Below, one piece after another: positions 3,502-43,830 of a stretch of DNA of 48,576 nt. The notes beneath the pieces were generated by a model, which was not told the DNA's origin, ran no database searches, and saw only the letters and a program-made list of their open reading frames with translations. The stretch's first letter is position 1, and every line of letters starts with the position of its first letter. The position numbers and the translations under genes were made by a program. This stretch comes from Thermodesulfobacteriota bacterium (GTDB lineage: Bacteria > Desulfobacterota > BSN033 > UBA1163), in assembly GCA_050014415.1 (NCBI GenBank), contig JBEKDJ010000002.1, positions 1 to 48,576 on the forward strand, given 5' to 3'.

Positions 3502-4272
3502 ATGGCATGGGAAGGTCTTCTTGAGGAAATGGTGAGAATATTCGAAAAGGAGTCTCGATTGATCCATCTTCCCTCACAGGGAAAGGTCGTCTTTGTCGGC
3601 GATACTCATGGAGATCTGGATGCCTCTCAGGAAGTCATCCATCGGTACCTTGAGAAGCCATACCGAATTGTCTTCCTCGGAGACTATGTAGATCGGGGCG
3701 ATCAAGCTGAAGAAAACATCCACTACCTGCTGCGCAAGAAAAGGGAACATCCGAATGAGATTTTCCTCCTGGCAGGTAATCACGAGGGATTCCAGATAAA
3801 AGAGTTTTATCCTGCTAGTTTTTGGGGGCGCCTTTCCTCAGATGAAAAAGAGACCTATGGTCTTCTTTTCTCCAAATTCCCCATTGCCGCTACCTCTCAA
3901 AATGGGATCTTGGCCGTTCACGGCGGGTTGCCCGACCTGAAATCCCTGGACGAGATAGACCGGATCGAATGGGGAGATGTCCATTGGGATCGAACCGTCT
4001 GGGGAGATTTCGTAGAACGAGAGGGCGAGGTGTTGGAAGACTGGGGTGGGAGGCCCCAGCTCGGGCAGCAGTATTTCGAGCGGATAATGGACCGGTATCG
4101 AAAACGGATCTTGATACGATCCCATCAACCCCATGCACATCCGCTGATGTTTAAGAAAAGGTGTATTACCATCTTCACTTGCAATGCCTATGGGCCCATC
4201 CGTACCATTGCGCTCGTCGATATGGAAAAGGAAGTGTATTCTGCAGAAGATATCGTCATCGAAAGGATATGA
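3502..4272 (+). CDS. metallophosphoesterase (PPP-type Ser/Thr phosphatase-like)
   Basis: GDTHGD, GDYVDRG and GNHE motifs in canonical order. ATG 2 nt after the yjbQ stop. Confidence 0.85.
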   Translation: MAWEGLLEEMVRIFEKESRLIHLPSQGKVVFVGDTHGDLDASQEVIHRYLEKPYRIVFLGDYVDRGDQAEENIHYLLRKKREHPNEIFLLAGNHEGFQIKEFYPASFWGRLSSDEKETYGLLFSKFPIAATSQNGILAVHGGLPDLKSLDEIDRIEWGDVHWDRTVWGDFVEREGEVLEDWGGRPQLGQQYFERIMDRYRKRILIRSHQPHAHPLMFKKRCITIFTCNAYGPIRTIALVDMEKEVYSAEDIVIERI

Positions 4273-5649: not shown

Positions 5650-7065
5650 ATGGGAGAAACGAGAGTGCCGAATCCAAGGATTTTGGTCATTGACGATGAA
5701 ATGATCGTTTGTGAGAGCTGCAAACGGATTTTGGAGGAGGATGGATATGAGGTGGAAACCGCACTCAGCGGGAAGGAGGCCTTTGCGAAAATGCGGGAGA
5801 ACCCTTTCGACATCGTCATTACCGACCTCAAAATGCCAGAGACCGATGGCATGGAAGTCCTGAGAACATTCCGTACGGAGTACCCGGATGTGATCGTCAT
5901 CATGGTTACGGGTTTTTCCACCGTAGAAACTGCAGTCGAGGCCATGAAATCAGGAGCCTTTGACTACATCCCCAAACCCTTCACGCCCGACGAGGTCTCG
6001 ATTGTTGTGAAGAAAGCAATCGAGAAGAAAAGTCTCTTGTTGGAGAATATCTATCTGCGTCAGGAATTACAGGGGAAATATGGGTTCCATAACATTGTGG
6101 GGAAGAGTAAGAGGATGCAGGAAATCTATCGAATGATTGCCAAAGTGGCGATCACCGACAGTACGGTCCTGATCTATGGTCAGAGTGGAACAGGGAAGGA
6201 GTTGATTGCTCGGGCCATCCATTTCAACAGCCCACGAAGAGATAAACAATTCGTCCCAGTGGACTGTGCCGTTCTCTCAGAAAACCTCTTGGAAAGTGAA
6301 TTGTTCGGCCATATCAGAGGCTCTTTTACCGGTGCCGTGACTACCAAGCCAGGGCTCTTCGAGGTAGCGGATGGAGGGACCGTCTTCCTCGATGAGGTGG
6401 GAAACATTAGCCTGGCCATTCAAGCCAAACTCTTGAGAGTACTGCAGGAAAGAGAATTCACACCCGTGGGAGGGACAAAGGCTAAGAAGGTGGAGATTCG
6501 GCTCATCGCCGCCACTAACAAAGACCTAGAGAAGATGATCAAGGAAGGGGCCTTCCGGGAAGATCTCTATTATCGGCTCAACATCGTTCCTATCACCCTC
6601 CCTACCCTGAAAGAGCGACAAGAAGATATTCCTCTTCTCGCCGTCCATTTTCTCAAGAAATACGCTGAAGAAGTTGGGAAGACTATCAAAGGGTTCACAC
6701 CTGAGTCAATAGAGAAACTGATGAGGTACCCCTGGCCTGGGAATGTTCGGGAATTGGAGAATATGATTGAACGAACTGCGGTGATGCTGGACGAGGAAAT
6801 GGTTCGAGTGGAACACTTTGTCCTTCCAGGTCAATTGGAGGGAGGAAGGTTGGAAGACCGCGTTCCGAAGACCAATGAAGAATTGAAGGAGATTAAGAAA
6901 CAGGTGAGAGAGAAGGCGGTTGAGGAAATCGAGAGGGCGTTTGTTCTCGAAGCATTGGAGCGGAATCATTGGAATGCGACCAGAGCCGCGGAAGAGGTGG
7001 GAATGCTTCGGCCGAATTTCCAGGCTCTGATTAGAAAGTATAACCTCCGGGCGAGAGAAGAGTAG
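5650..7065 (+). CDS. sigma-54-dependent response regulator (NtrC-family enhancer-binding protein: REC + AAA+ + HTH)
   Basis: ILVIDDE...DIVITDLKMP receiver, Walker A GQSGTGKE, GSFTGA (GAFTGA-type loop), C-terminal Fis-type HTH. Confidence 0.93.
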   Translation: MGETRVPNPRILVIDDEMIVCESCKRILEEDGYEVETALSGKEAFAKMRENPFDIVITDLKMPETDGMEVLRTFRTEYPDVIVIMVTGFSTVETAVEAMKSGAFDYIPKPFTPDEVSIVVKKAIEKKSLLLENIYLRQELQGKYGFHNIVGKSKRMQEIYRMIAKVAITDSTVLIYGQSGTGKELIARAIHFNSPRRDKQFVPVDCAVLSENLLESELFGHIRGSFTGAVTTKPGLFEVADGGTVFLDEVGNISLAIQAKLLRVLQEREFTPVGGTKAKKVEIRLIAATNKDLEKMIKEGAFREDLYYRLNIVPITLPTLKERQEDIPLLAVHFLKKYAEEVGKTIKGFTPESIEKLMRYPWPGNVRELENMIERTAVMLDEEMVRVEHFVLPGQLEGGRLEDRVPKTNEELKEIKKQVREKAVEEIERAFVLEALERNHWNATRAAEEVGMLRPNFQALIRKYNLRAREE

Positions 7066-7067
7066 AA

Positions 7068-7165
7068 AATGATCAGTTATCAATTTGCAATGCTCAATGA
7101 TCAACGGACAGTTATAAAGCCTGCGGCCGATCAGTAAGAATTGACAATTGACCATTGCCAATTGA
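7068..7165. repeat. type II heptad array (AATNNNC words, then NAATTGA words)
   Basis: 14 in-register heptads: aatgatc agttatc aatttgc aatgctc aatgatc ... gaattga caattga ccattgc caattga. Exact 18-mer AATGATCAGTTATCAATT shared with 34421-34438. Confidence 0.7.
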
Positions 7166-7183
7166 GAGCAGTCGAGGTTCTTC

Positions 7184-7390
7184 TTGTCAGATTTTTTTAA
7201 ATGGTTGATCGTGGGCTGGTCAATTGTCGTGGTAGGTATTGCTGCCCTTGGAACACTTCTGGTCATCAAGTATGGAGAGGTGAAAAAGATTGAGACCGAC
7301 GACGTGAGCCTCTGTTTCATCATAGCTTTTTTCTGTTGGTTGATCCCCATCATTGCCTTCTCTATTCTGGCCCGAACCCTGGGTTTTTGA
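7184..7390 (+). CDS. hypothetical small membrane protein (68 aa, two hydrophobic segments)
   Basis: TTG-initiated ORF with two clear TM-like stretches. Start and reality uncertain. Confidence 0.4.
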   Translation: MSDFFKWLIVGWSIVVVGIAALGTLLVIKYGEVKKIETDDVSLCFIIAFFCWLIPIIAFSILARTLGF

Positions 7391-7401
7391 GAAGAAAACT
7401 A

Positions 7402-7502
7402 GGTGTATAGTTTGCACATTTTTAGATAAATCCAAGTGTTTCGAATAATTATGAATGAAAGCCCCGTTCCTTTTCAAAATACGTATATACTGAATATACA
7501 CC
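7402..7502 (+). promoter_or_regulatory. candidate enhancer (UAS) region for the sigma-54 promoter
   Basis: GGTGTATA (7402-7409) and its complement TATACACC (7495-7502); self-complementary GTATATAC (7483-7490). AT-rich, roughly 110-205 bp upstream of the predicted start site. Confidence 0.3.
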
Positions 7503-7544
7503 AGTCCTTAAAACACCTTATTAAATTCATAAAATATCAAATAA

Positions 7545-7557
7545 AATCAATATATTA
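7545..7557 (+). promoter_or_regulatory. IHF-like site (AATCAA-tata-TTA) between UAS candidates and the -24/-12 promoter
   Basis: Matches WATCAA-N4-TTR. It sits where IHF sites occur in sigma-54 promoters. Confidence 0.4.
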
Positions 7558-7581
7558 GAACGTACAAATTTCCTTTGACCT

Positions 7582-7598
7582 TTGGCACGAGGAATGCA
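7582..7598 (+). promoter_or_regulatory. sigma-54 (-24/-12) promoter
   Basis: TTGGCACGAGGAATGCA versus consensus YTGGCACG-N4-TTGCW. GG (7584-7585) and GC (7596-7597) are separated by 10 nt. Lies 40 nt upstream of ATG 7637 and downstream of a sigma-54 activator gene. Confidence 0.7.
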
Positions 7599-7636
7599 GT
7601 CCACTGAGTAAAGACAAAGGAAAGGGGGAATGGGGT

Positions 7637-7936
7637 ATGGCAAAAGGCAATAAGAGAATGGCTGTAGGATTAATGGTCGGGTTGATGAGCCTGATGGCTA
7701 CACCGGCGTTTGCAAAATCGATCAGTCTGAAAGACGCTGGAGTTACCCTTTGGATTTTCATCATCATTGGGGCCATTATCGTCCTGCTTCAATTGGTTCC
7801 AGCTGTGATCCTCTTCTTTTCTTTCATCGGGACCACTTCGAGCATGGTTTTCAAGCAGAAGAAGGCACCAGAGGAAGCAACTGCCGAGGAGAAGGCTCTG
7901 CTTCCGGGGTACGAGGCTGCAACCGTTAAGAAGTGA
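7637..7936 (+). CDS. small membrane protein P1 (99 aa; signal peptide plus long hydrophobic core)
   Basis: Good SD (aaggaaaggggg). Signal-like MAVGLMVGLMSLMATPAFA. Core IIIGAIIVLLQLVPAVILFFSFIGT is paralogous to the next ORF. Confidence 0.7.
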   Translation: MAKGNKRMAVGLMVGLMSLMATPAFAKSISLKDAGVTLWIFIIIGAIIVLLQLVPAVILFFSFIGTTSSMVFKQKKAPEEATAEEKALLPGYEAATVKK

Positions 7937-26714: not shown

Positions 26715-26847
26715 GGTTATCAGAACATCAGGTTATCAGGCAATGACTATCAGGACACTAGGTTATCAGGTAAACAAAGAAATGATTCTTTTCCTGCTCC
26801 TCTGATTTCCCAGTGCTCTGCGTCCTGATTTCCTGATAACCTGAATC
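26715..26847. repeat. type III 8-bp word array (ATCAGG words, then CCTGAT words)
   Basis: AGGTTATCAGG at 26730-26740 and 26760-26770; reverse complement CCTGATAACC at 26832-26841. ATCAG and CTGAT words are mostly spaced 8 bp apart. Confidence 0.6.
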
Positions 26848-32060: not shown

Positions 32061-32783
32061 TCAGGGCTTTAGCTCTGATGAGTTAACCTTGAAAGGTTGA
32101 GGTACTGTCAAAAAGGTCTTGAGAACTTCCCATTTCTTTTCTCCGATTCCCTTCACATTTTTTAACTCTTCAACCGATCGGAAGCCTCTCCTTTTCCCTC
32201 GATAGGCGACGATTTCTCGGGCCAAGGATTCTCCGATCCCGGGAATCAAGCAGAGATCCTCCGCCGAGACTCGGTTGAGGTCTAGAGGTATGAAGAAGAT
32301 AAGTAGTTTGCTGGCCTCCATTCTTCCCAATTTTACTTTAGTTCCCCCATACCCCCCCTTATAAAAGGGGGGACATGGAGGGATTATACGGGATTCTTTC
32401 ACTACCGTGATCAGGGTCCCCGTTTCCAGGGCCTTTGAGGAAGCAGCGGTTTCGAGGAACTCAGCCTCCTTCAACCCTCCTGCTTTTTCAATCGCTTCCT
32501 TCAATGAGGGCGGATTCCGGAAAATGAAGATTCCAGGATTCGGCACGTCTCCTGACACTTCAACCGCACACTCTCCGACAATCTCTTCAGGAGGGGGCAG
32601 AAGGCGATGATAATAAAATCGAAAATAGAGAATACCGAGGAGAAATATGGCAACGATGAAGAGAATCCGTTGTTGACCAAGAGAGAAATGTTTGAATAAT
32701 TGAGGAGGGAGGACTGCGAATTGCGGATTGAATAAAGAAAGAAAAGATCTCAGTTTCTGTTTGCCAAATTCCGAAATCCGCAT
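32061..32783 (-). CDS. comEA: ComEA-type helix-hairpin-helix DNA-binding/uptake protein
   Basis: N-terminal TM, SLBB-like middle region, C-terminal LNRVSAEDLCLIPGIGESLAREIVAYRGKRRGFRSVEELKNVKGIGEKKWEVL. The start is uncertain because the 5' end runs through a repeat array. Confidence 0.8.
   Translation of the reverse strand: MRISEFGKQKLRSFLSLFNPQFAVLPPQLFKHFSLGQQRILFIVAIFLLGILYFRFYYHRLLPPPEEIVGECAVEVSGDVPNPGIFIFRNPPSLKEAIEKAGGLKEAEFLETAASSKALETGTLITVVKESRIIPPCPPFYKGGYGGTKVKLGRMEASKLLIFFIPLDLNRVSAEDLCLIPGIGESLAREIVAYRGKRRGFRSVEELKNVKGIGEKKWEVLKTFLTVPQPFKVNSSELKP
32341..32396. repeat. REP-like hairpin element, copy B, in frame inside comEA
   Basis: CCCCCCTT-ataa-AAGGGGGG hairpin followed by GGAGGGATT. 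Translated as PPFYKGGYGG in the linker. Homologous to 5137-5170. Confidence 0.55.
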
Positions 32784-32800
32784 TCCGAAATCCGAAATGG
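32711..32800. repeat. type I heptad-word array (inverted halves) spanning the comEA 5' end
   Basis: CGAATTGCGGATT (32717-32729) matches 40296-40308 exactly. Right half is attccgaaatccgcattccgaaatccgaaat. Confidence 0.55.
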
Positions 32801-32802
32801 TT

Positions 32803-34386
32803 CTATTCTTCTTCTTTGAGGAGTTTATAATCGATGGAGTCGACAAGAGCCTGCCAACTGGCTTGGATGATATTCTCGGAGACTCCAACCGTTCCCCACT
32901 TTGATTCTCCATCTCCCGATTCGATGAGAACCCTCGTTTGGGCCCCGGTTCCATCCTTCGTCGAAAGAATCCTGACTTTATAGTCCAGCAGTTTAACCTC
33001 CTTCAATTCAGGATAGAACTTCTCCAAGGCCTTTCGCAACGCATGATCCAATGCATTGACCGGGCCATTTCCCACCGCTGCGGTATGCTCGACCTGATCC
33101 CCCACACGGACCATGATGGTGGCCTCTGCAAGGGAAGGGGCTTCCTCCCTATCCTTTTCGACGATCACACGAAACCCCATCAGTTCGAAGAACTTCTTGT
33201 GCTGTCCAAGGGCCTTTTTAATGAGTATCTCAAAAGAACCTTCTGCTCCCTCAAACTGAAAACCCTCGTTTTCCAGGCGCTTTAGGTCGTCGAGGATCTT
33301 TTTCACCTTCGGATCTTTGCTCTTCAAATCGATTTTTAGCTCGGCGGCTTTGTAAAGAATATTCGATTTACCGGAGTAATCAGAGATAAGAACCCTTTGA
33401 CGATTTCCAACCCGCTCTGGAGGAACATGTTCGTAGGTGGCATCACTCTTTCGGATGGCGCTCACATGCAAGCCACCCTTGTGAGCAAAGGCGCTGTCCC
33501 CCACATAAGGGAGGTATTTATTGTGGGGGAGGTTGGCCAACTCTGAGATGAAACGAGAGACCTCAGTGATCTTTTTCAACTGATCATCCGTGATACAATC
33601 CATTTTCATTTTTAACTTGAGATTGGGGATGATGGAACAGAGATTAGCATTCCCGCATCTTTCCCCGTACCCGTTCATGGTGCCATGGACCATCAGGACG
33701 CCTTCCTTGACCGCTAAGATGGTGTTTGCTACGGCCATCTCCGTATCATTATGAACATGAATGCCCAAGGGAATGGTGATTTGTTTTCTTGTCTCTCTAA
33801 TGATGGTTTGAATCTCGTCAGGGAAGGTCCCTCCATTCGTATCGCATAAGACAATCCAATCGGCCTTGGCATCCTGTGCAGCCTTCAGCGTGGAGAGGGC
33901 ATACTGGGGATTGTTTTTGAATCCATCGAAGAAATGTTCTGCATCAAAAATAACTTCCTCGGCCTGACCCTTCAGAAACTGAATCGAGCTATGAATGATC
34001 TCGAGATTCTGATCAAGAGTTATATTTAATGCCTCAAGGGGATGAATATCCCAGGACTTTCCGACAATGGTTATCACCTTTGTGCCAGCCTCGATCAGAG
34101 CTTGGATATTTGCATCATTCTGGGGCAAAGTCCCTGCCCGGCAGGTGCTTCCAAAGGCCACCATCTTTGCCTGAGATAGGGGAACCAATTTGATCTCTTG
34201 AAAAAACTGGATGTCCTTTGGGTTAGAGCCTGGCCAGCCTCCTTCGATGTAATGAACGCCTAAATCATTCAACTTCTGCGCAATACGAACTTTGTCCTCT
34301 ACGGAAAAGGCGATGTCTTCCGCCTGGGCGCCATCCCGAAGCGTAGTATCATAGATCTTCACTGAATTTAAATGACTCAAAGCCAT
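32803..34386 (-). CDS. cimA: (R)-citramalate synthase (LeuA-family)
   Basis: [50 protein letters not shown]-terminus. 527 aa with a LeuA-type regulatory C-terminal domain. Confidence 0.88.
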
Positions 34387-34402
34387 ATGCCTCCATATGA
34401 AA

Positions 34403-34584
34403 GGTCAATCATCAGTGGTCAATGATCAGTTATCAATTCTCAATGATCATTAACCATTAGTCGTCGGCCATTGATTATTATTGATTGGCCACTTCCTATT
34501 GATTATAGGCTATCAATTACCAATTATAAATACTCAGTTCTGACCATTGAACATTGGTCATTGCCCATTGATTATTGATCATTT
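34403..34584. repeat. type II heptad array: 26 consecutive in-register 7-bp units
   Basis: ggtcaat catcagt ggtcaat gatcagt tatcaat tctcaat gatcatt aaccatt ... accattg aacattg gtcattg cccattg attattg atcattt. The left half has CAAT words and the right half ATTG words. Confidence 0.8.
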
Positions 34585-35817
34585 CTCTTCTGCCACAGAT
34601 GGCTTATCTAACTCAAAAGCATCATGGAGCGCTCGAACTGCCAGTTCGGTATATTTTGCGTTGATGATACAGGAGATCTTGATCTCTGAAGTGGAGATCA
34701 TGTTGATATTGATGCCCTCCTTTGCCAAGGCAGAGAACATCTGGGTGGCTACATGGGAGTGGCTCCTCATACCTACACCCACAATCGATACCTTGGCAAT
34801 GTTTTCATCGGCGGCGACCTCTTTCCCACCGAACCCTTTCATGGTCTCCTTGATGATCTGAAGGGTTTTGGTGAAATCGGACTTGGGAACGGTGAAGGCC
34901 ACATCCGCATAACCTTTCTCCGTGCTGGAGGTCTGGATGATCATATCCACGACGATATTGGCATCGGCAATGGGCTTAAACAATTTGGCAACCATTCCAG
35001 GAACGTCCGGAACACCCATGATCTCAATCTTCGCCTCATTCTTGTTGTAAGTGACACCGGAAACGACAACCCTTTCCATTTCTTCGTCCTCCTTGCAAAC
35101 GATCGTTCCAAGATTATCATTGAAAGATGACCTTACATGGATGGGGACATCATATTTCTTAGCAAACTCAACCGATCGTATCTGTAACACTTTGGCACCC
35201 AGGCTGGCCATTTCAAGCATCTCGTCATAAGAGATCTTGGATAACTTTCTCGCCTTCGGGCAGATGTTGGGATCGGTGGTATAGACTCCATCGACATCGG
35301 TGTAGATCTCGCAGACGTCTGCCTTCAAGGCGGCTGCAACCGCGACACCTGTCGTATCAGATCCCCCTCGACCCAGGGTGGTAATATTATCTGACTCATC
35401 CACGCCCTGAAACCCTGCTACCACCACCACCCTTCCGTTCTTTAGATCCTTAAGTATCTTCTCCGACTCAATGCCTGAAATGCGGGCCTTGCCAAAGGCG
35501 CTGTCTGTAGCAATCTTGATTTGAAACCCCAAGTAAGATTTCGAGGCACAGCCCATTGCTTTAAGAGCGATAGCAAGCAAGGCAATGGAGACCTGTTCTC
35601 CTGTGGAGACAAGGACATCCAATTCCCTCTCGTCAGGGGTTGGAGTGATCTGCTGGGCTAGGCGAATCAGCTTGTCCGTCTCTCCGGCCATTGCGGATAC
35701 AACCACCACAACATCATGGCCTTGATTCTTCGTTTTGATCACCCTGGAGGCCACGTTTTTAATTCGGTCAATATCCCCCACAGAGGTACCGCCATATTTT
35801 TGAACCACCAATGCCAT
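34579..35817 (-). CDS. lysC: aspartate kinase
   Basis: [14 protein letters not shown] start with SD ggagg. Kinase domain plus two ACT-like C-terminal domains. Confidence 0.93.
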
Positions 35818-35833: not shown

Positions 35834-35921
35834 AATCCATTGCGGAATGTAGAATGCGGATTGCAGAATTAAGAACTTGAGATTATCACATTCCGCATTC
35901 CGCACTGCGAATTCCGAATTC
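35834..35921. repeat. type I heptad-word array, inverted halves (GCGGAAT words / ATTCCGC words)
   Basis: gcggaat gtagaat gcggatt gcagaat taagaac, then cacattc cgcattc cgcactg cgaattc cgaattc. The right half forms the tsaE 3' end. Confidence 0.6.
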
Positions 35922-36362
35922 TTTCAAAAGCTTCTCATAGTGTTTGCCTTTGCCAACGATTTCTATAGACCTGGTCTGCTTCCCTGTATAGCGGATTTGT
36001 ATCCAAATGAGTTCTCTTAGAAGAAGTGATGGAATTCTGTCTGCCCATTCAATCGCCGTGATCCCCTCACCCCCCAGATACTCCTCCAAACCCAGTTCCT
36101 CAGCCTCCTTCTCTTCTCTCAACCGGAAAAGATCGATATGGTAAAGGGGCATCTTTCCTGTGTACTCGTTGATCAACGTAAAGGAGGGGCTTGAAATGTA
36201 ACGGGTGTCCCGAACCCCCGCCCCTGCAGCAAGGCCTTTGATGAATTGGGTCTTTCCTGTCCCCAATTCACCCACCAAGGCGACCACATCTCCTCGCAAA
36301 AGAAGACTTCCAAGCCTTTTCCCAATTCGGATCGTCTCTGAGGTACTCCTGGTCTGGAAGGC
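35886..36362 (-). CDS. tsaE: tRNA t6A37 biosynthesis ATPase TsaE (YjeE)
   Basis: VALVGELGTGKTQFIKG P-loop, SPSFTLINEY, LYHIDLFRL, IEWADR. GTG 36362 preferred; the ORF to 36416 reads through a repeat array. Confidence 0.85.
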   Translation of the reverse strand, partial: AFQTRSTSETIRIGKRLGSLLLRGDVVALVGELGTGKTQFIKGLAAGAGVRDTRYISSPSFTLINEYTGKMPLYHIDLFRLREEKEAEELGLEEYLGGEGITAIEWADRIPSLLLRELIWIQIRYTGKQTRSIEIVGKGKHYEKLLKEFGIRSAECGM

Positions 36363-36370
36363 CACTTTTC

Positions 36371-36450
36371 CAATTTGAGATTTAGGATTTGGGATTTCAA
36401 ATTTCAGATTTTTCAATCTGCAATCTACAATCTGCCATTTGAAATTGCAG
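36371..36450. repeat. type I heptad-word array (NNATTTN x6, then AATCTNN x4-5)
   Basis: caatttg agattta ggatttg ggatttc aaatttc agatttt, then aatctgc aatctac aatctgc. Shares exact GCAATCTACAATC (36420-36432) with 40376-40388. Confidence 0.6.
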
Positions 36451-36451
36451 T

Positions 36452-36925
36452 CTAGGCCTTGTACTTAAAATCCTCCGGATTAAGATTTTCCAGCCATTCC
36501 TTCAATTGGTCGCCTTCCTTCTCCATGTCGATGGTCCGCGCCTTTTCGATCACCTGATCCGAGACAAAGATCGGAGCATCTACAGCGAGGGCGATGGCAA
36601 TTGCGTCACTGGGCCGAGAATCGATGATGATCTCTGCTCCTCGCCTCATAAGGTGGATCAATGCATAGTAGGTATTTTCCTTCAGGTCATTCACGATGAT
36701 TTTCACAACCTGAGATTCAAGGGTATTGAGAATACTATGGATCAAATCATGGGTCATAGGCCGATGGGAGCCTATCTTCTTCAATTTCATGGCGATCGCA
36801 TTGGCTTCAAAAGGTCCAATCCATATGGGAAGCCCCGTTTTATTCGATAGGTCCATCAAGAGGACGACGAATCCATTCGATGTGGAATCGAAAGTCAAGA
36901 ATTTCACTTTCATTTCGACAAACAT
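36452..36925 (-). CDS. bifunctional nuclease family protein (BFN / DUF151)
   Basis: LPIWIGPFEANAIAMKL, RPMTHDL, NTYYALIHL and IDSRPSDAIAIAL are hallmark DUF151 motifs. Confidence 0.85.
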   Translation of the reverse strand: MFVEMKVKFLTFDSTSNGFVVLLMDLSNKTGLPIWIGPFEANAIAMKLKKIGSHRPMTHDLIHSILNTLESQVVKIIVNDLKENTYYALIHLMRRGAEIIIDSRPSDAIAIALAVDAPIFVSDQVIEKARTIDMEKEGDQLKEWLENLNPEDFKYKA

Positions 36926-36977: not shown

Positions 36978-38123
36978 TCAACGAAATCTCAAAGCAGCGC
37001 CCACTCCGTCGCTCTCTCTTAAGATGGTATTCTCTTCAACCCATTTGACCTCTCCGTCCTGACGGAGGGTTGACCTCACCATCTCTTCTCCGAGGTTGAC
37101 AATCTTCATCTCTTCTTTGCAGAGTGGGCAATGGGCGGACGGGTCACCCGGAGAAGGGATCAGGACAAGAGAACTGCATCGGTGGCACTTTCCTCCTGAA
37201 TGAGAAAACGATGTCACGAGATAGAGTGTCTGGATCTGTCCTCCATTCAAGGCCTCCAATGTTCCGTTTAGACCGAAGGTGGACAACCCACCCTTGGGGC
37301 TCCTCTCCTTCAACTCCTCGATCTGCCTGGAGACTTCCTGGCTCTCCTTCTGGAGGAGACGTTCGAAAACCCGCTTCAACACTTTTGAACGTTCCTCTGA
37401 AAAATCGATGGAGAAAGTATCCGCGATCTGCTGTTTGATTCGTTCAGGAAGGAAGGCTCTAAAATTGGCCACGATCCGTTCTTGGCCGATCAGGACCACC
37501 CGTTTCCATTTCCCGGAATCGAAGAGTTCGGTGAGTTGCTCGGCCACCTCTCTGTGATGTTTATCCATATGATCTTTGATGTGACGCTGGTACCTCATCT
37601 GGGCCCATCCTCCTTGATCGTGGCGTCCGGGGACATAACTCTCGATGGAGGATTCGGCCATCAGACCCTCCAGCGAGACTTCAAACAGCTTAGCCGAGTC
37701 CGTATCCACCATGACAGCCAATGTACCTTGATACTGAGAAGACAGGCGGACAAGAGGTTGGAGGGCGGGGAGATCGGAGATAACGCATTCATTTTCAAAA
37801 GGGACGATTGAAGGGTAGGTAAGAAAAACCCCATTGCCACTACAGGAGAAGATCGCCAGCCCATTTACCCCCTCATCATAGGAACGTCGAACCAACCCCT
37901 CCACGTACTTCTCAATCTGTTTTTGGTCTTCGGCAAAGGTCTTTCGCCAATCCTCTCGATCTTTAAGTTGATCATGGATCCTCTTCAGCTGATTTTTCGT
38001 GAAAAGTCGTATCCGTTCCCGCTGTTGCTCGTCATCCTGTTTCGTATTGAGATAGAGGGACACGAAAGGATAGGGACTTTCTTCGATCCGGGCCAATCTC
38101 TTGATCTCACTCTTTATGTCCAT
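36978..38123 (-). CDS. bacterial eRF1/Pelota-like (baeRF-type) protein with C-terminal Zn-ribbon insert
   Basis: PGRHDQGGWAQMRYQRHIKDHMDKHHREVAE aligns without gaps to the eRF1 GGQ-loop region [30 protein letters not shown]; Gln is replaced by Trp. CHRC-x17-CPLC near the C-terminus. Confidence 0.75.
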   Translation of the reverse strand: MDIKSEIKRLARIEESPYPFVSLYLNTKQDDEQQRERIRLFTKNQLKRIHDQLKDREDWRKTFAEDQKQIEKYVEGLVRRSYDEGVNGLAIFSCSGNGVFLTYPSIVPFENECVISDLPALQPLVRLSSQYQGTLAVMVDTDSAKLFEVSLEGLMAESSIESYVPGRHDQGGWAQMRYQRHIKDHMDKHHREVAEQLTELFDSGKWKRVVLIGQERIVANFRAFLPERIKQQIADTFSIDFSEERSKVLKRVFERLLQKESQEVSRQIEELKERSPKGGLSTFGLNGTLEALNGGQIQTLYLVTSFSHSGGKCHRCSSLVLIPSPGDPSAHCPLCKEEMKIVNLGEEMVRSTLRQDGEVKWVEENTILRESDGVGAALRFR

Positions 38124-40282: not shown

Positions 40283-40400
40283 AGATTTCAGATCTCGAAT
40301 TGCGGATTTCGGAATGAAAAACAGATCATTCTGCAATGGTGAATCTCAATTCAGAATTTCTTTTTCAATTATTCCGCAATCTACAATCCGCAATTCATTT
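40283..40400. repeat. type I word element bounded by 12-bp perfect inverted repeats
   Basis: GAATTGCGGATT (40297-40308) and AATCCGCAATTC (40385-40396), with heptad words in between (attccgc aatctac aatccgc aattcat). Confidence 0.6.
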
Positions 40401-42505: not shown

Positions 42506-42603
42506 CTCTTTCCCGTGCCTTCCAGCAGGCACCATGCCTCTCTTTTGAGACTTCTTCATCGTTACCATCGTTACCATAAATCCTTAGAAAAGGCAAGCAA
42601 GGG

Positions 42604-42689
42604 GGGTAAGAATAGGGACATATTCCATTTATTAGAATGAGGCCACCTGTTATTAGGATGAAAAATGGGATGTGTCCCTATTCTTACCC
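42604..42689. repeat. 17-bp perfect inverted repeat with a 52-nt loop in the folP-glmM spacer
   Basis: GGGTAAGAATAGGGACA (42604-42620) and TGTCCCTATTCTTACCC (42673-42689). The right arm contains the stop codon of the restored folP frame. Confidence 0.5.
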
Positions 42690-43830
42690 GGCTAGGCGAA
42701 TCGCATCGGCAACGGCAAGTGTCTTTTTTGCCTGGAGTACGTCATGGCATCGGACGATATGAGCGCCATTGAGAGCTGCGATGGCGATGCTTGAAAGAGT
42801 TCCCTGATGTCCCCAAGAGTATTGGTCTACCAAGTACCCGGAATTCCGAGAGATTTTTTATGATTTGGAGGTTGTCCTCAAGGGTCTTTCCAAAGCCAAT
42901 CCCTGGATCGATGATGATCTGTTGCGGGTCTAATCCGGCAGATTCTGCTTTGTGAATGGAGTCTTTCAGGTATTGGAGTATTTCAGAGAAAAGAGAGTCA
43001 TAGCGGACATCCTTCTGCATCGTTTCTGGGGTTCCTCGGATGTGCATCAGGATTAGGGGGATATCTCCCTTTGCAGCCACCTGAGCAAGCTCAGGGTCAA
43101 AGTGTAATCCAGTGATATCATTTATGATTTCAGCCCCTGCCTCCAAGGCTTTCCGGGCCACTGCCGATTTGTAAGTATCTACGGAAATCGGAATATCTAT
43201 CTCTTTGGCAAGGGATTCAATCACAGGCATAATCCGACGTAATTCCTCTTCCAATCCAAGGGGTTTTGAACCTGGCCTGGTGGATTCCCCTCCGATGTCC
43301 AAGAGATCCGCTCCCTCTTCGACCATTTTCAGACCATGAGCAATAGCCTTTTCCTTGATGAAGTAGAGGCCGCCGTCTGAAAAGGAATCAGGAGTGACGT
43401 TGAGAACCCCCATCAAGAGGGTTCGCCCTCCCAACGTGAATGTCCGCTTCCGACAGCGTATGGAGAAATGAGTTCTTGAGACATTGTCGAGGGTTTCCTC
43501 TAGGCATTGGCCAAGGGGCTGGAGGTGGGGATTTCGGTCCAATTTGAGGATCAGTTCTTCAAACTGATTTCGGATGCCCATGAGAATGACGTCGGTCGAT
43601 CCGATGCTACAGTCGAGCCCCCTCGCGTCGACAGCAGCATCGCCACCCAAGGAGAGCATCTCCTGTTTTAGAAGATTGGCAGTCCGCGGGTCGATCCCTT
43701 CCACCTTGAAATTGAATTGAAGGGTCTTTCCTTTCACCCACTCCATGCCAGTGGCATCCACCCCCACCTTTTCCATTTGATAGAGGGCGTCTCCGGCGTT
43801 GGTGATGTTAAGGCACCGTATTAAGTTCAT
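42684..43830 (-). pseudogene. folP: dihydropteroate synthase with N-terminal extra domain; 3' part disrupted by an out-of-frame internal deletion
   Basis: Core motifs LMGVLNVTPDSFSDGG, DIGGESTRPG and IIDPGIGFGK are intact. After LLGTS (42810-42805) the frame breaks. The conserved tail GTLSSIAIAALNGAHIVRCHDV...RLAG continues in another frame to the stop at 42684-42686. The SRKSF(IG...ER) segment is missing. Confidence 0.75.

Follow-up and report, generated by a model that had tools for sequence, protein, structure and literature searches.

STRR-like inverted tandem-repeat arrays in the lysC-cimA spacer and other gene-end spacers of a peat and wetland bacterial lineage

The spacer between lysC and cimA (34403-34584, 182 bp, minus strand) is one of a set of STRR-like inverted tandem-repeat arrays in the window, that is, in the whole analysed stretch of 48,576 nucleotides from a Thermodesulfobacteriota bacterium. 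These arrays form a clade-specific, fast-turnover family located between stop codons and ribosome-binding sites (RBSs). The inverted tandem architecture and its placement are conserved in this family; the sequence and the strict 7-nt period are not. The identity of the lysC-cimA element is much more secure than its function. For the function, we have about even confidence in a combined reading, in which a slippage-built STRR-like array would act as an intercistronic stem-loop of the lysC-cimA mRNA. The main rival is a tolerated mutational by-product.

Architecture of the lysC-cimA spacer

Autocorrelation analysis of the spacer, which extends from the lysC stop codon to the cimA RBS, gave identities of 0.59, 0.57 and 0.58 at lags of 7, 14 and 21 nt, compared with 0.12-0.34 at other lags. 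The lag-7 identity of shuffled sequences was 0.27. When the left, middle and right blocks were each analysed, the observed periodicity was reached by 0 of 5000 shuffles. Tandem Repeats Finder detected arrays of period 7, 14 and 21. A sequence-only reading of this DNA had parsed the spacer into 26 heptads without any register slip. Our analysis supports the 7-bp period but not the uninterrupted register: CATTG is in phase 3 in the middle block and in phase 2 in the right arm, a shift of 1 nt, which indicates that the register is not constant across all 26 heptads. Nor is the 7-bp period, clear as it is in this spacer, exclusive, because a period of 8 was found at 26715-26844 and in several orthologous spacers.

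The spacer is bounded by two inverted arms of 43 nt (34400-34442 and 34541-34583) that are 74% complementary, in agreement with the imperfect palindrome described before. The arms pair also in registers offset by 7 and 14 nt. The sense strand is organised as (CAATnnn)x6, a mixed centre and (AYTGAYN)x8, with a CAAT/ATTG core every 7 nt that is about 8-fold denser than the average of the whole window. Pairing of the arms comes mostly from the conserved 4-nt CAAT core. By hand count, the variable triplets of the arms matched at 10 of 18 positions in the best register and at 8 of 18 when shifted by 7 nt. The arms thus do not mirror each other exactly, and covariation at the level of base pairs is absent.

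On the mRNA (minus) strand, the 5' arm (34541-34583) is a CAATnnn heptad array beginning on the lysC stop codon. This TGA (34579-34581, minus strand) is inside the first heptad and overlaps an ATG (ATGA). The array had been said to overlap the 'last codons' of lysC, which was an overstatement, since the overlap consists of the stop codon and one sense codon only. In the central segment (34445-34552, minus strand), short blocks of CAAT alternate with short blocks of ATTG, and there are small sub-hairpins. The 3' arm (34400-34442, minus strand) is an AYTGAYN heptad array that includes one TAACTGA and stops 5 nt short of the cimA RBS, GGAGG. Both this RBS (34390-34394, minus strand) and the cimA start codon (34384-34386, minus strand) are outside the arrays.

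The identification of the flanking genes as lysC and cimA agrees with their domains. The lysC product is an aspartate kinase with AA_kinase and ACT domains, and the cimA product is a citramalate/isopropylmalate-synthase-type (cimA/leuA-type) protein with HMGL-like and LeuA_dimer domains, both encoded on the minus strand. The two genes are part of a co-directional string, pdxJ-acpS-nnr (NAD(P)HX repair)-baeRF-BFN-tsaE-lysC-cimA-comEA. The remainder of the window has ordinary chromosomal content, such as Lon, multihaem cytochromes, a NorB-like oxidase, Mla transport and two-component systems. No transposase, transposase-like domain or RAYT gene was found among the proteins of the window.

Several standard features were considered for the spacer and rejected. 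No terminator-like site was found in 34387-34600, the count being at shuffle expectation, and the spacer is not an intrinsic terminator because it has no U-tract. Promoter-like sites in the spacer region were not in excess and were likewise at shuffle expectation. There is a sigma-70-like match, TTTATA-17 nt-TATAAT (10/12), in the central segment on the cimA strand (34502-34530, minus strand); it would permit a cimA-only transcript from inside the element and may mean nothing, given the number of matches expected from shuffles. Rfam gave no match for the whole window at gathering thresholds and only chance matches over the spacer in E-value mode (E >= 0.3), and a cis-regulatory RNA (lysine riboswitch, T-box or leader) was rejected for want of a meaningful covariance-model match. 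The ATG overlapping the lysC stop codon (AAATGATC) opens a 21-codon ORF through the 5' arm (34518-34583, minus strand). A leader peptide was rejected because this ORF is not conserved in relatives: the ATGA overlaps in contigs L086 and L087 give ORFs of only 5 codons, so that no conserved peptide exists. A CRISPR array, which the sequence-only reading had rightly excluded, is incompatible with contiguous 7-nt units, as CRISPRs have 23-50-nt repeats with unique spacers. A link to phages was also rejected, because the exact 18-mer that the spacer shares with a second copy in the window had one chance match among viral contigs, in an AT-rich phage contig with no array. A blastn search of the spacer against a plasmid collection gave no match, and here the low-complexity filter probably masks the query.

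Sister arrays in the window and orthologous spacers in relatives

Seven loci in the 48.6-kb window share the arrangement of direct array, loop and complementary array, six with period 7 and one with period 8. All seven are downstream of the 3' end of a gene, in non-coding DNA or at gene ends, and five of them occupy successive spacers along the pdxJ-to-comEA string. The unit differs from locus to locus (CAATGAY, ATTTCGG, ATGCGGA, GCAGATT or GGATTGC), and both CAAT-first and ATTG-first orientations relative to transcription were found. A window-wide scan with 21-nt windows detected seven segments at lag 7 and none at lags 5, 6 and 8-12 or in block shuffles. The lag-7 signal was absent from most other spacers of the window. 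Two of the three apparently divergent spacers have no arrays, and the third (7502-7636) has some lag-7 signal and uncertain flanking gene calls. This third spacer is AT-rich (35% GC) with a lag-7 excess of 0.43 (z 4.0) and no clear array call; the genes called beside it (7220-7501 and 7637-7936) have no Pfam match.

The locus most similar to the lysC-cimA spacer is a CAAT/ATTG inverted pair after the stop codon of a sigma-54 response-regulator gene (7061-7184, plus strand). We found the second copy reported at 7068-7165 and, shared with it, both an exact 18-mer (7068 and 34421) and an 11-mer (7093 and 34439). The two loci align over 56 nt and have the same polarity to their upstream genes. Dispersal had thus been recognised correctly but its extent underestimated, since six further inverted tandem-array loci accompany the lysC-cimA spacer in the window. 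The period-8 inverted pair (TCAGGNNN / CCTGATAA) is located between sensor-kinase and response-regulator genes (26715-26844, minus strand). The other four loci, all on the minus strand, are inverted heptad arrays in the same gene string as lysC: GGATTGC / CCGCAAT between pdxJ and acpS (40296-40390), GCAGATT / AAATCYN between the BFN-nuclease gene and tsaE (36378-36450), ATGCGGA / CATTCCG between tsaE and lysC (35838-35921), and ATTTCGG / AATCCGC after the cimA stop codon (32711-32799), the last overlapping the called start of a comEA-like ORF.

Two of these arrays extend into reading frames. The last ~12 codons of TsaE (...EFGIRSAECGM*) are encoded by a TTCGGAA/TGCGGAA heptad array forming the 5' arm (35886-35930, minus strand), and this arm inside the tsaE ORF is kept in contigs L004 (8491-8529), L086 (2559-2598) and L089. 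A 7-nt repeat within a reading frame, as at this 3' end of tsaE, is unusual. The comEA-like ORF (32700-32800, minus strand; 11568-11667 in L004) has its called ATG in or beside the 5' array and reads through the loop and the 3' arm. Contigs L087, L088 and L092 have an ATG downstream of the cimA-comEA hairpin (MKYFSLGQQ), and the window lacks that ATG (KHFSLGQQ). This leaves two options: translation of the cimA-comEA hairpin as an N-terminal extension of the protein, or initiation at a codon other than ATG.

The exact CimA protein was found on metagenome contigs from ENA, JGI and Logan, and the stretch was present in metagenomic DNA runs from peat, wetland, soil and freshwater sediment. Among species-representative genomes, the closest, a MAG labelled 'uncultured delta proteobacterium', has a CimA with 87% identity, and the second closest one with only 65%. 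Eight related contigs, with CimA 80-88% identical, all show one and the same order at the lysC-cimA spacer: stop codon, direct array, loop, complementary array and RBS. The unit is CAATGAY in the window, in its strains and partly in L089, GAACGAT in L004 and L086, and an 8-nt GGAATAMT or GGAATGWY in L087, L088, L090 and L129. Each change of unit between relatives affects both lysC-cimA arms together. In relatives with CimA of 70% identity or less, the lysC-cimA spacer is 10-45 bp long and has no array. Other spacers of the same operon likewise have arrays with species-dependent units. The tsaE-lysC spacer of L088 and L129 has an ordinary non-repetitive inverted repeat in place of the arrays (read by eye from the sequence), which suggests that the stem-loop is the retained feature.

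The density of lag-7 arrays in the clade was 19.6 per 100 kb, compared with 1.9 per 100 kb in 152 unrelated loci (1.83 Mb in total), an enrichment of about 10-fold. The arrays counted in the clade were 22 at lag 7, 3 at lag 8 and 2 at lag 6. The idea of a dispersed element had been staked on the presence of further copies and on enrichment over background; copies exist, and the ~10-fold enrichment is clade-specific. What is new here is a further host lineage for heptamer arrays and a comparative series in which one orthologous spacer, in nine related genomes, keeps its layout while unit and period are replaced. The architecture itself is already in the literature. Models of origin or function must explain both the conserved layout and the changing sequence and period.

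Some unrelated genomes have period-7 arrays of their own, mostly inverted pairs. These were seen in Nitrospirota, Nitrospinae, Desulfonatronovibrio and Pelotomaculum MAGs and in an actinomycetotal bin (L009 395-519 and 4143-4245, L006 3724-3797, L010 2048-2150, L057 709-811, L080 9860-10222 and L047 2575-2702). Their units are lineage-specific, for example GGCAAAG/CTTTGCC. Inverted heptad arrays are phylogenetically scattered.

Comparison with known repeat systems

Records of heptamer tandem arrays in bacteria go back to the cyanobacterial STRR reports and to the genome papers on Geobacter. STRR1-3 of Calothrix and Anabaena are the canonical STRR unit sequences. Cyanobacterial STRR sequences are 'usually made up of 7 bp repeats', and in several genera they form a hupS-hupL intergenic hairpin, for which transcript stability or translational coupling was proposed (PMC2670836). 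According to the title of Vioque 1997, the RNase P RNA gene also contains STRRs. In Nostoc, GAC(C/T)AAT is repeated eight times upstream of recO, ATTGCGA arrays are present in 79 chromosomal copies and 26 copies on the alpha plasmid, and deletion of a heptamer array altered reporter output. In G. metallireducens, tandem hepta-, octa- and nonanucleotide repeats of 3-5 units (classes 1-3) occur as pairs on opposite strands at variable distance; they number in the tens per genome, and one site is the proB-proA spacer (Aklujkar 2009, PMC2700814). These paired repeats are absent from G. sulfurreducens, and the authors guessed, without experiments, that they are sites of an unknown global regulator of the IHF/HU type (PMC2700814). 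The sequence-only reading had stated that none of the standard feature types explains the lysC-cimA array. This statement does not stand, as both the STRR sequences (PMC2670836) and the paired sites of G. metallireducens (PMC2700814) had already been described.

The arrays of the window resemble STRR sequences in their 7-nt tandem units, in their many dispersed and mostly intergenic copies, and in the presence of several unit families per genome. As in the hupS-hupL case, inverted arrays able to form a hairpin are located between genes, and lysC and cimA are presumably co-transcribed. The Nostoc word GAC(C/T)AAT occurs in the window as GACCAAT, the one word held in common with a Nostoc array, and ATTGCGA of Nostoc resembles the ATTGCGG unit of the array at 40296-40390. 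On the other hand, the host is an uncultivated deltaproteobacterial or Thermodesulfobacteriota-type peat and wetland lineage and not a heterocystous cyanobacterium. The lysC-cimA units (CAATGAY and similar) are more degenerate and not canonical, and the period is 8 at orthologous sites.

The paired repeats of G. metallireducens share with our arrays the runs of 3-5 tandem units of 7-9 nt, the arrangement as opposite-strand pairs with varying distance, the multicopy occurrence and the position between operon genes. Their consensus sequences MTYCTGA, GTTGCTYN and TCTCCGTSY are, however, unmatched here, the nearest being the period-8 unit CCTGATAA. The Geobacter families are conserved enough for BLAST alignment, whereas every locus in this window has its own unit.

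TAACTGA direct repeats have been described in marine Beggiatoaceae, some cyanobacteria and Bacteroidetes (MacGregor 2015, PMC4679880), and were proposed as sites for a periodic single-strand binder of the cold-shock-domain or S1 type. The likeness consists in a heptamer array just before a start codon, and the cimA-proximal arm ATTGATAACTGATCATTGACCACTGATGATTGAC has TAACTGA-like units. However, the sense strand of the spacer has a single TAACTGA (34426-34432), and the three in the whole window are never in tandem. The Beggiatoa arrays are mostly unpaired direct repeats that overlap the expected RBS position, whereas the lysC-cimA arrays spare the RBS.

REP sequences are single palindromes of 20-40 nt with conserved sequence, high copy number and a dedicated RAYT transposase. 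Our arrays resemble REP/BIME sequences as dispersed extragenic palindromic DNA after gene ends within operons. Membership in REP/BIME was rejected, because the arms consist of tandem units specific to each locus and the proteins of the window include no RAYT. REP/BIME and the intercistronic stabiliser stem-loops of selective RNA processing and stabilisation operons provide the model for the mRNA-punctuation role that we infer below.

Origin and possible role of the arrays

In the combined reading, replication slippage of 7-8-nt units would make the arrays grow and homogenise, and template switching across the hairpin, selection for pairing, or the two together may keep the arms alike. The slippage origin is suggested by one strain that was caught in the middle of unit homogenisation. 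In haplotype L085, CAATGGG is changed to CAATAAT, a copy of the adjacent unit. The same haplotype has a 4-nt partial-unit insertion, AATG, that creates one more CAAT. A general excess of heptamers points in the same direction: in most bacterial genomes they are more frequent than any other simple repeat with a longer unit (5-11 nt), and slippage was proposed as the reason (Mrazek 2007, as summarised in PMC4679880). Slippage-generated DNA, one of the candidates put forward from the sequence, is thus supported by the replacement of a heptad with a copy of its neighbour and by the turnover of unit and period between species.

According to the same reading, lysC and cimA would be on one transcript, and the spacer would fold between the cistrons into a long imperfect stem-loop with multiple registers. 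The stem-loop might punctuate the mRNA as a barrier to 3'-exonucleases or as a site for a double-strand RNase, with the cimA RBS left free. It would be a generic operon feature rather than a lysine- or isoleucine-specific regulator. We favour an mRNA stem-loop because of the placement, because the architecture is kept through replacement of unit and period, and because ordinary inverted repeats are found in relatives. The dispersed structured element or transcript punctuation suggested earlier likewise fits the anatomy of inverted arms, stop-to-RBS placement and seven window loci. Counting against the mRNA stem-loop are the strand-symmetric folding, the 74% complementarity of the arms, the neutral-rate drift and the distant relatives with no array.

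The main rival is a functionless mutational by-product, in which slippage-prone 7-8-nt arrays and fold-back copies would accumulate wherever a spacer tolerates them, and the hairpin would be unselected and would result from their origin by template switching in quasi-palindromes. We consider this possible but rather unlikely. Compared with dinucleotide shuffles, a 221-nt stretch folded at -55.3 kcal/mol on the sense strand (z -2.0) and at -58.7 kcal/mol on the antisense strand (z -4.1), and the orthologous lysC-cimA spacers all out-folded their shuffles (z -1.9 to -6.1). Among 28 array hairpins whose gene orientation is known, the sense strand folded better in 12 and the antisense strand in 13, with 3 ties (Wilcoxon p = 0.56). 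As there is no strand bias, G-U pairing gives no signal of which strand matters, or of RNA versus DNA, and this symmetry favours a by-product. The pairing itself is harder to explain in this way, because it is systematic, being present in 7 of 7 window loci and 9 of 9 lysC-cimA orthologues.

Comparison of strains gave evidence on both sides. Between two strains with an overall difference of 0.6%, the lysC-cimA spacer differs by 2.1% and an array-free spacer by 2.7%; the sequence of the lysC-cimA spacer drifts at about the neutral intergenic rate, which favours a by-product. Four of the five array spacers, on the contrary, are unchanged between these strains. In other strain contigs the coding flanks are identical, but the spacer either is a different one of ~140 nt or lacks the central 108 nt; in some, the central segment (34445-34552) is swapped for 22-29 nt. 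Such replaced or shortened spacers between identical flanks, the unit conversion in a haplotype, and the gain and loss between species with absence from outgroups are all consistent with tolerated DNA. Counting against a by-product are the ends of the arrays before the RBS and their position after gene ends, with no arrays in two of the three apparently divergent spacers.

A multi-site protein-binding array, recognised either as DNA by a nucleoid-associated protein or global regulator or as RNA by a cold-shock-domain or S1-type binder, would account for the 4-nt CAAT/ATTG core at each 7 nt and its ~8-fold density over the window. Analogy with other systems lends it some weight: the same or similar heptamers occur in distant phyla (GAC(C/T)AAT and ATTGCGA in Nostoc, TAACTGA in Beggiatoaceae), deletion of a Nostoc heptamer array changed reporter output, and the Geobacter authors interpreted their paired repeats in this way (PMC2700814). 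We nevertheless regard it as improbable. The unit varies by locus and, at one locus, by species, sometimes with period 8, so that one sequence-specific protein cannot read all arrays. In addition, neighbouring sites 7 bp apart point to different sides of the B-DNA helix, arrays can be CAAT-first or ATTG-first relative to transcription, and no candidate protein was identified.

A wider and decidedly improbable proposal is that 7/8-nt arrays are tracks for a dedicated periodic nucleic-acid-binding protein, or products of a repeat-extending activity, shared across phyla. If true, the system would be common to cyanobacteria, Beggiatoaceae, some Bacteroidetes, Geobacter-type deltaproteobacteria, the present peat lineage and some Nitrospirota and Nitrospinae MAGs. 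It would perhaps be horizontally transferred, and it would represent a genome-wide layer of post-transcriptional or chromosome-structuring control. The lysC-cimA result alone reveals no new mechanism.

A MITE- or REPIN-like miniature mobile element, with terminal inverted repeats made of heptad arrays, is extremely improbable, even though the two CAAT-type copies share 56 nt including the exact 18-mer in the same polarity to the upstream gene, and the element is missing or replaced in strain contigs. In peat metagenomes, three other array types reached a depth of 20-200 times the baseline with many different flanks, and some types were found in at least 14 different sequence contexts; high depth and many flanks mean that array units are widespread across the community, in part because abundant relatives carry conserved orthologous arrays. 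Against mobility, neither a target-site duplication nor conserved termini were seen, each locus has a separate unit family, divergence at orthologous loci is gradual and not a matter of one element being there or missing, the window has no transposase or RAYT gene, and the 18-mer has only its one chance match in viral contigs.

Three further observations concern this genomic region and its relatives. In contig L089, the lysC-cimA spacer (3760-3900) and the BFN-tsaE spacer (~1590-1680) have copies of another structured element, which contains GTCATTCCGGCGAAAGCCGGAATCCAG ... CTGGAC(A/T)CCGGTTTTCACCGG and resembles a MITE-like dispersed insert within, or replacing, the heptad hairpins. The bacterial eRF1-like gene (baeRF family 10, 36978-38123, minus strand) adjoins the BFN bifunctional-nuclease-domain gene (36452-36925, minus strand), and this pairing is present also in strain contig L001. 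The largest difference between the window and the near-identical L001 over 12 kb is in the intergenic spacer at 42578-42741, where L001 is ~150 nt longer and has numerous substitutions.
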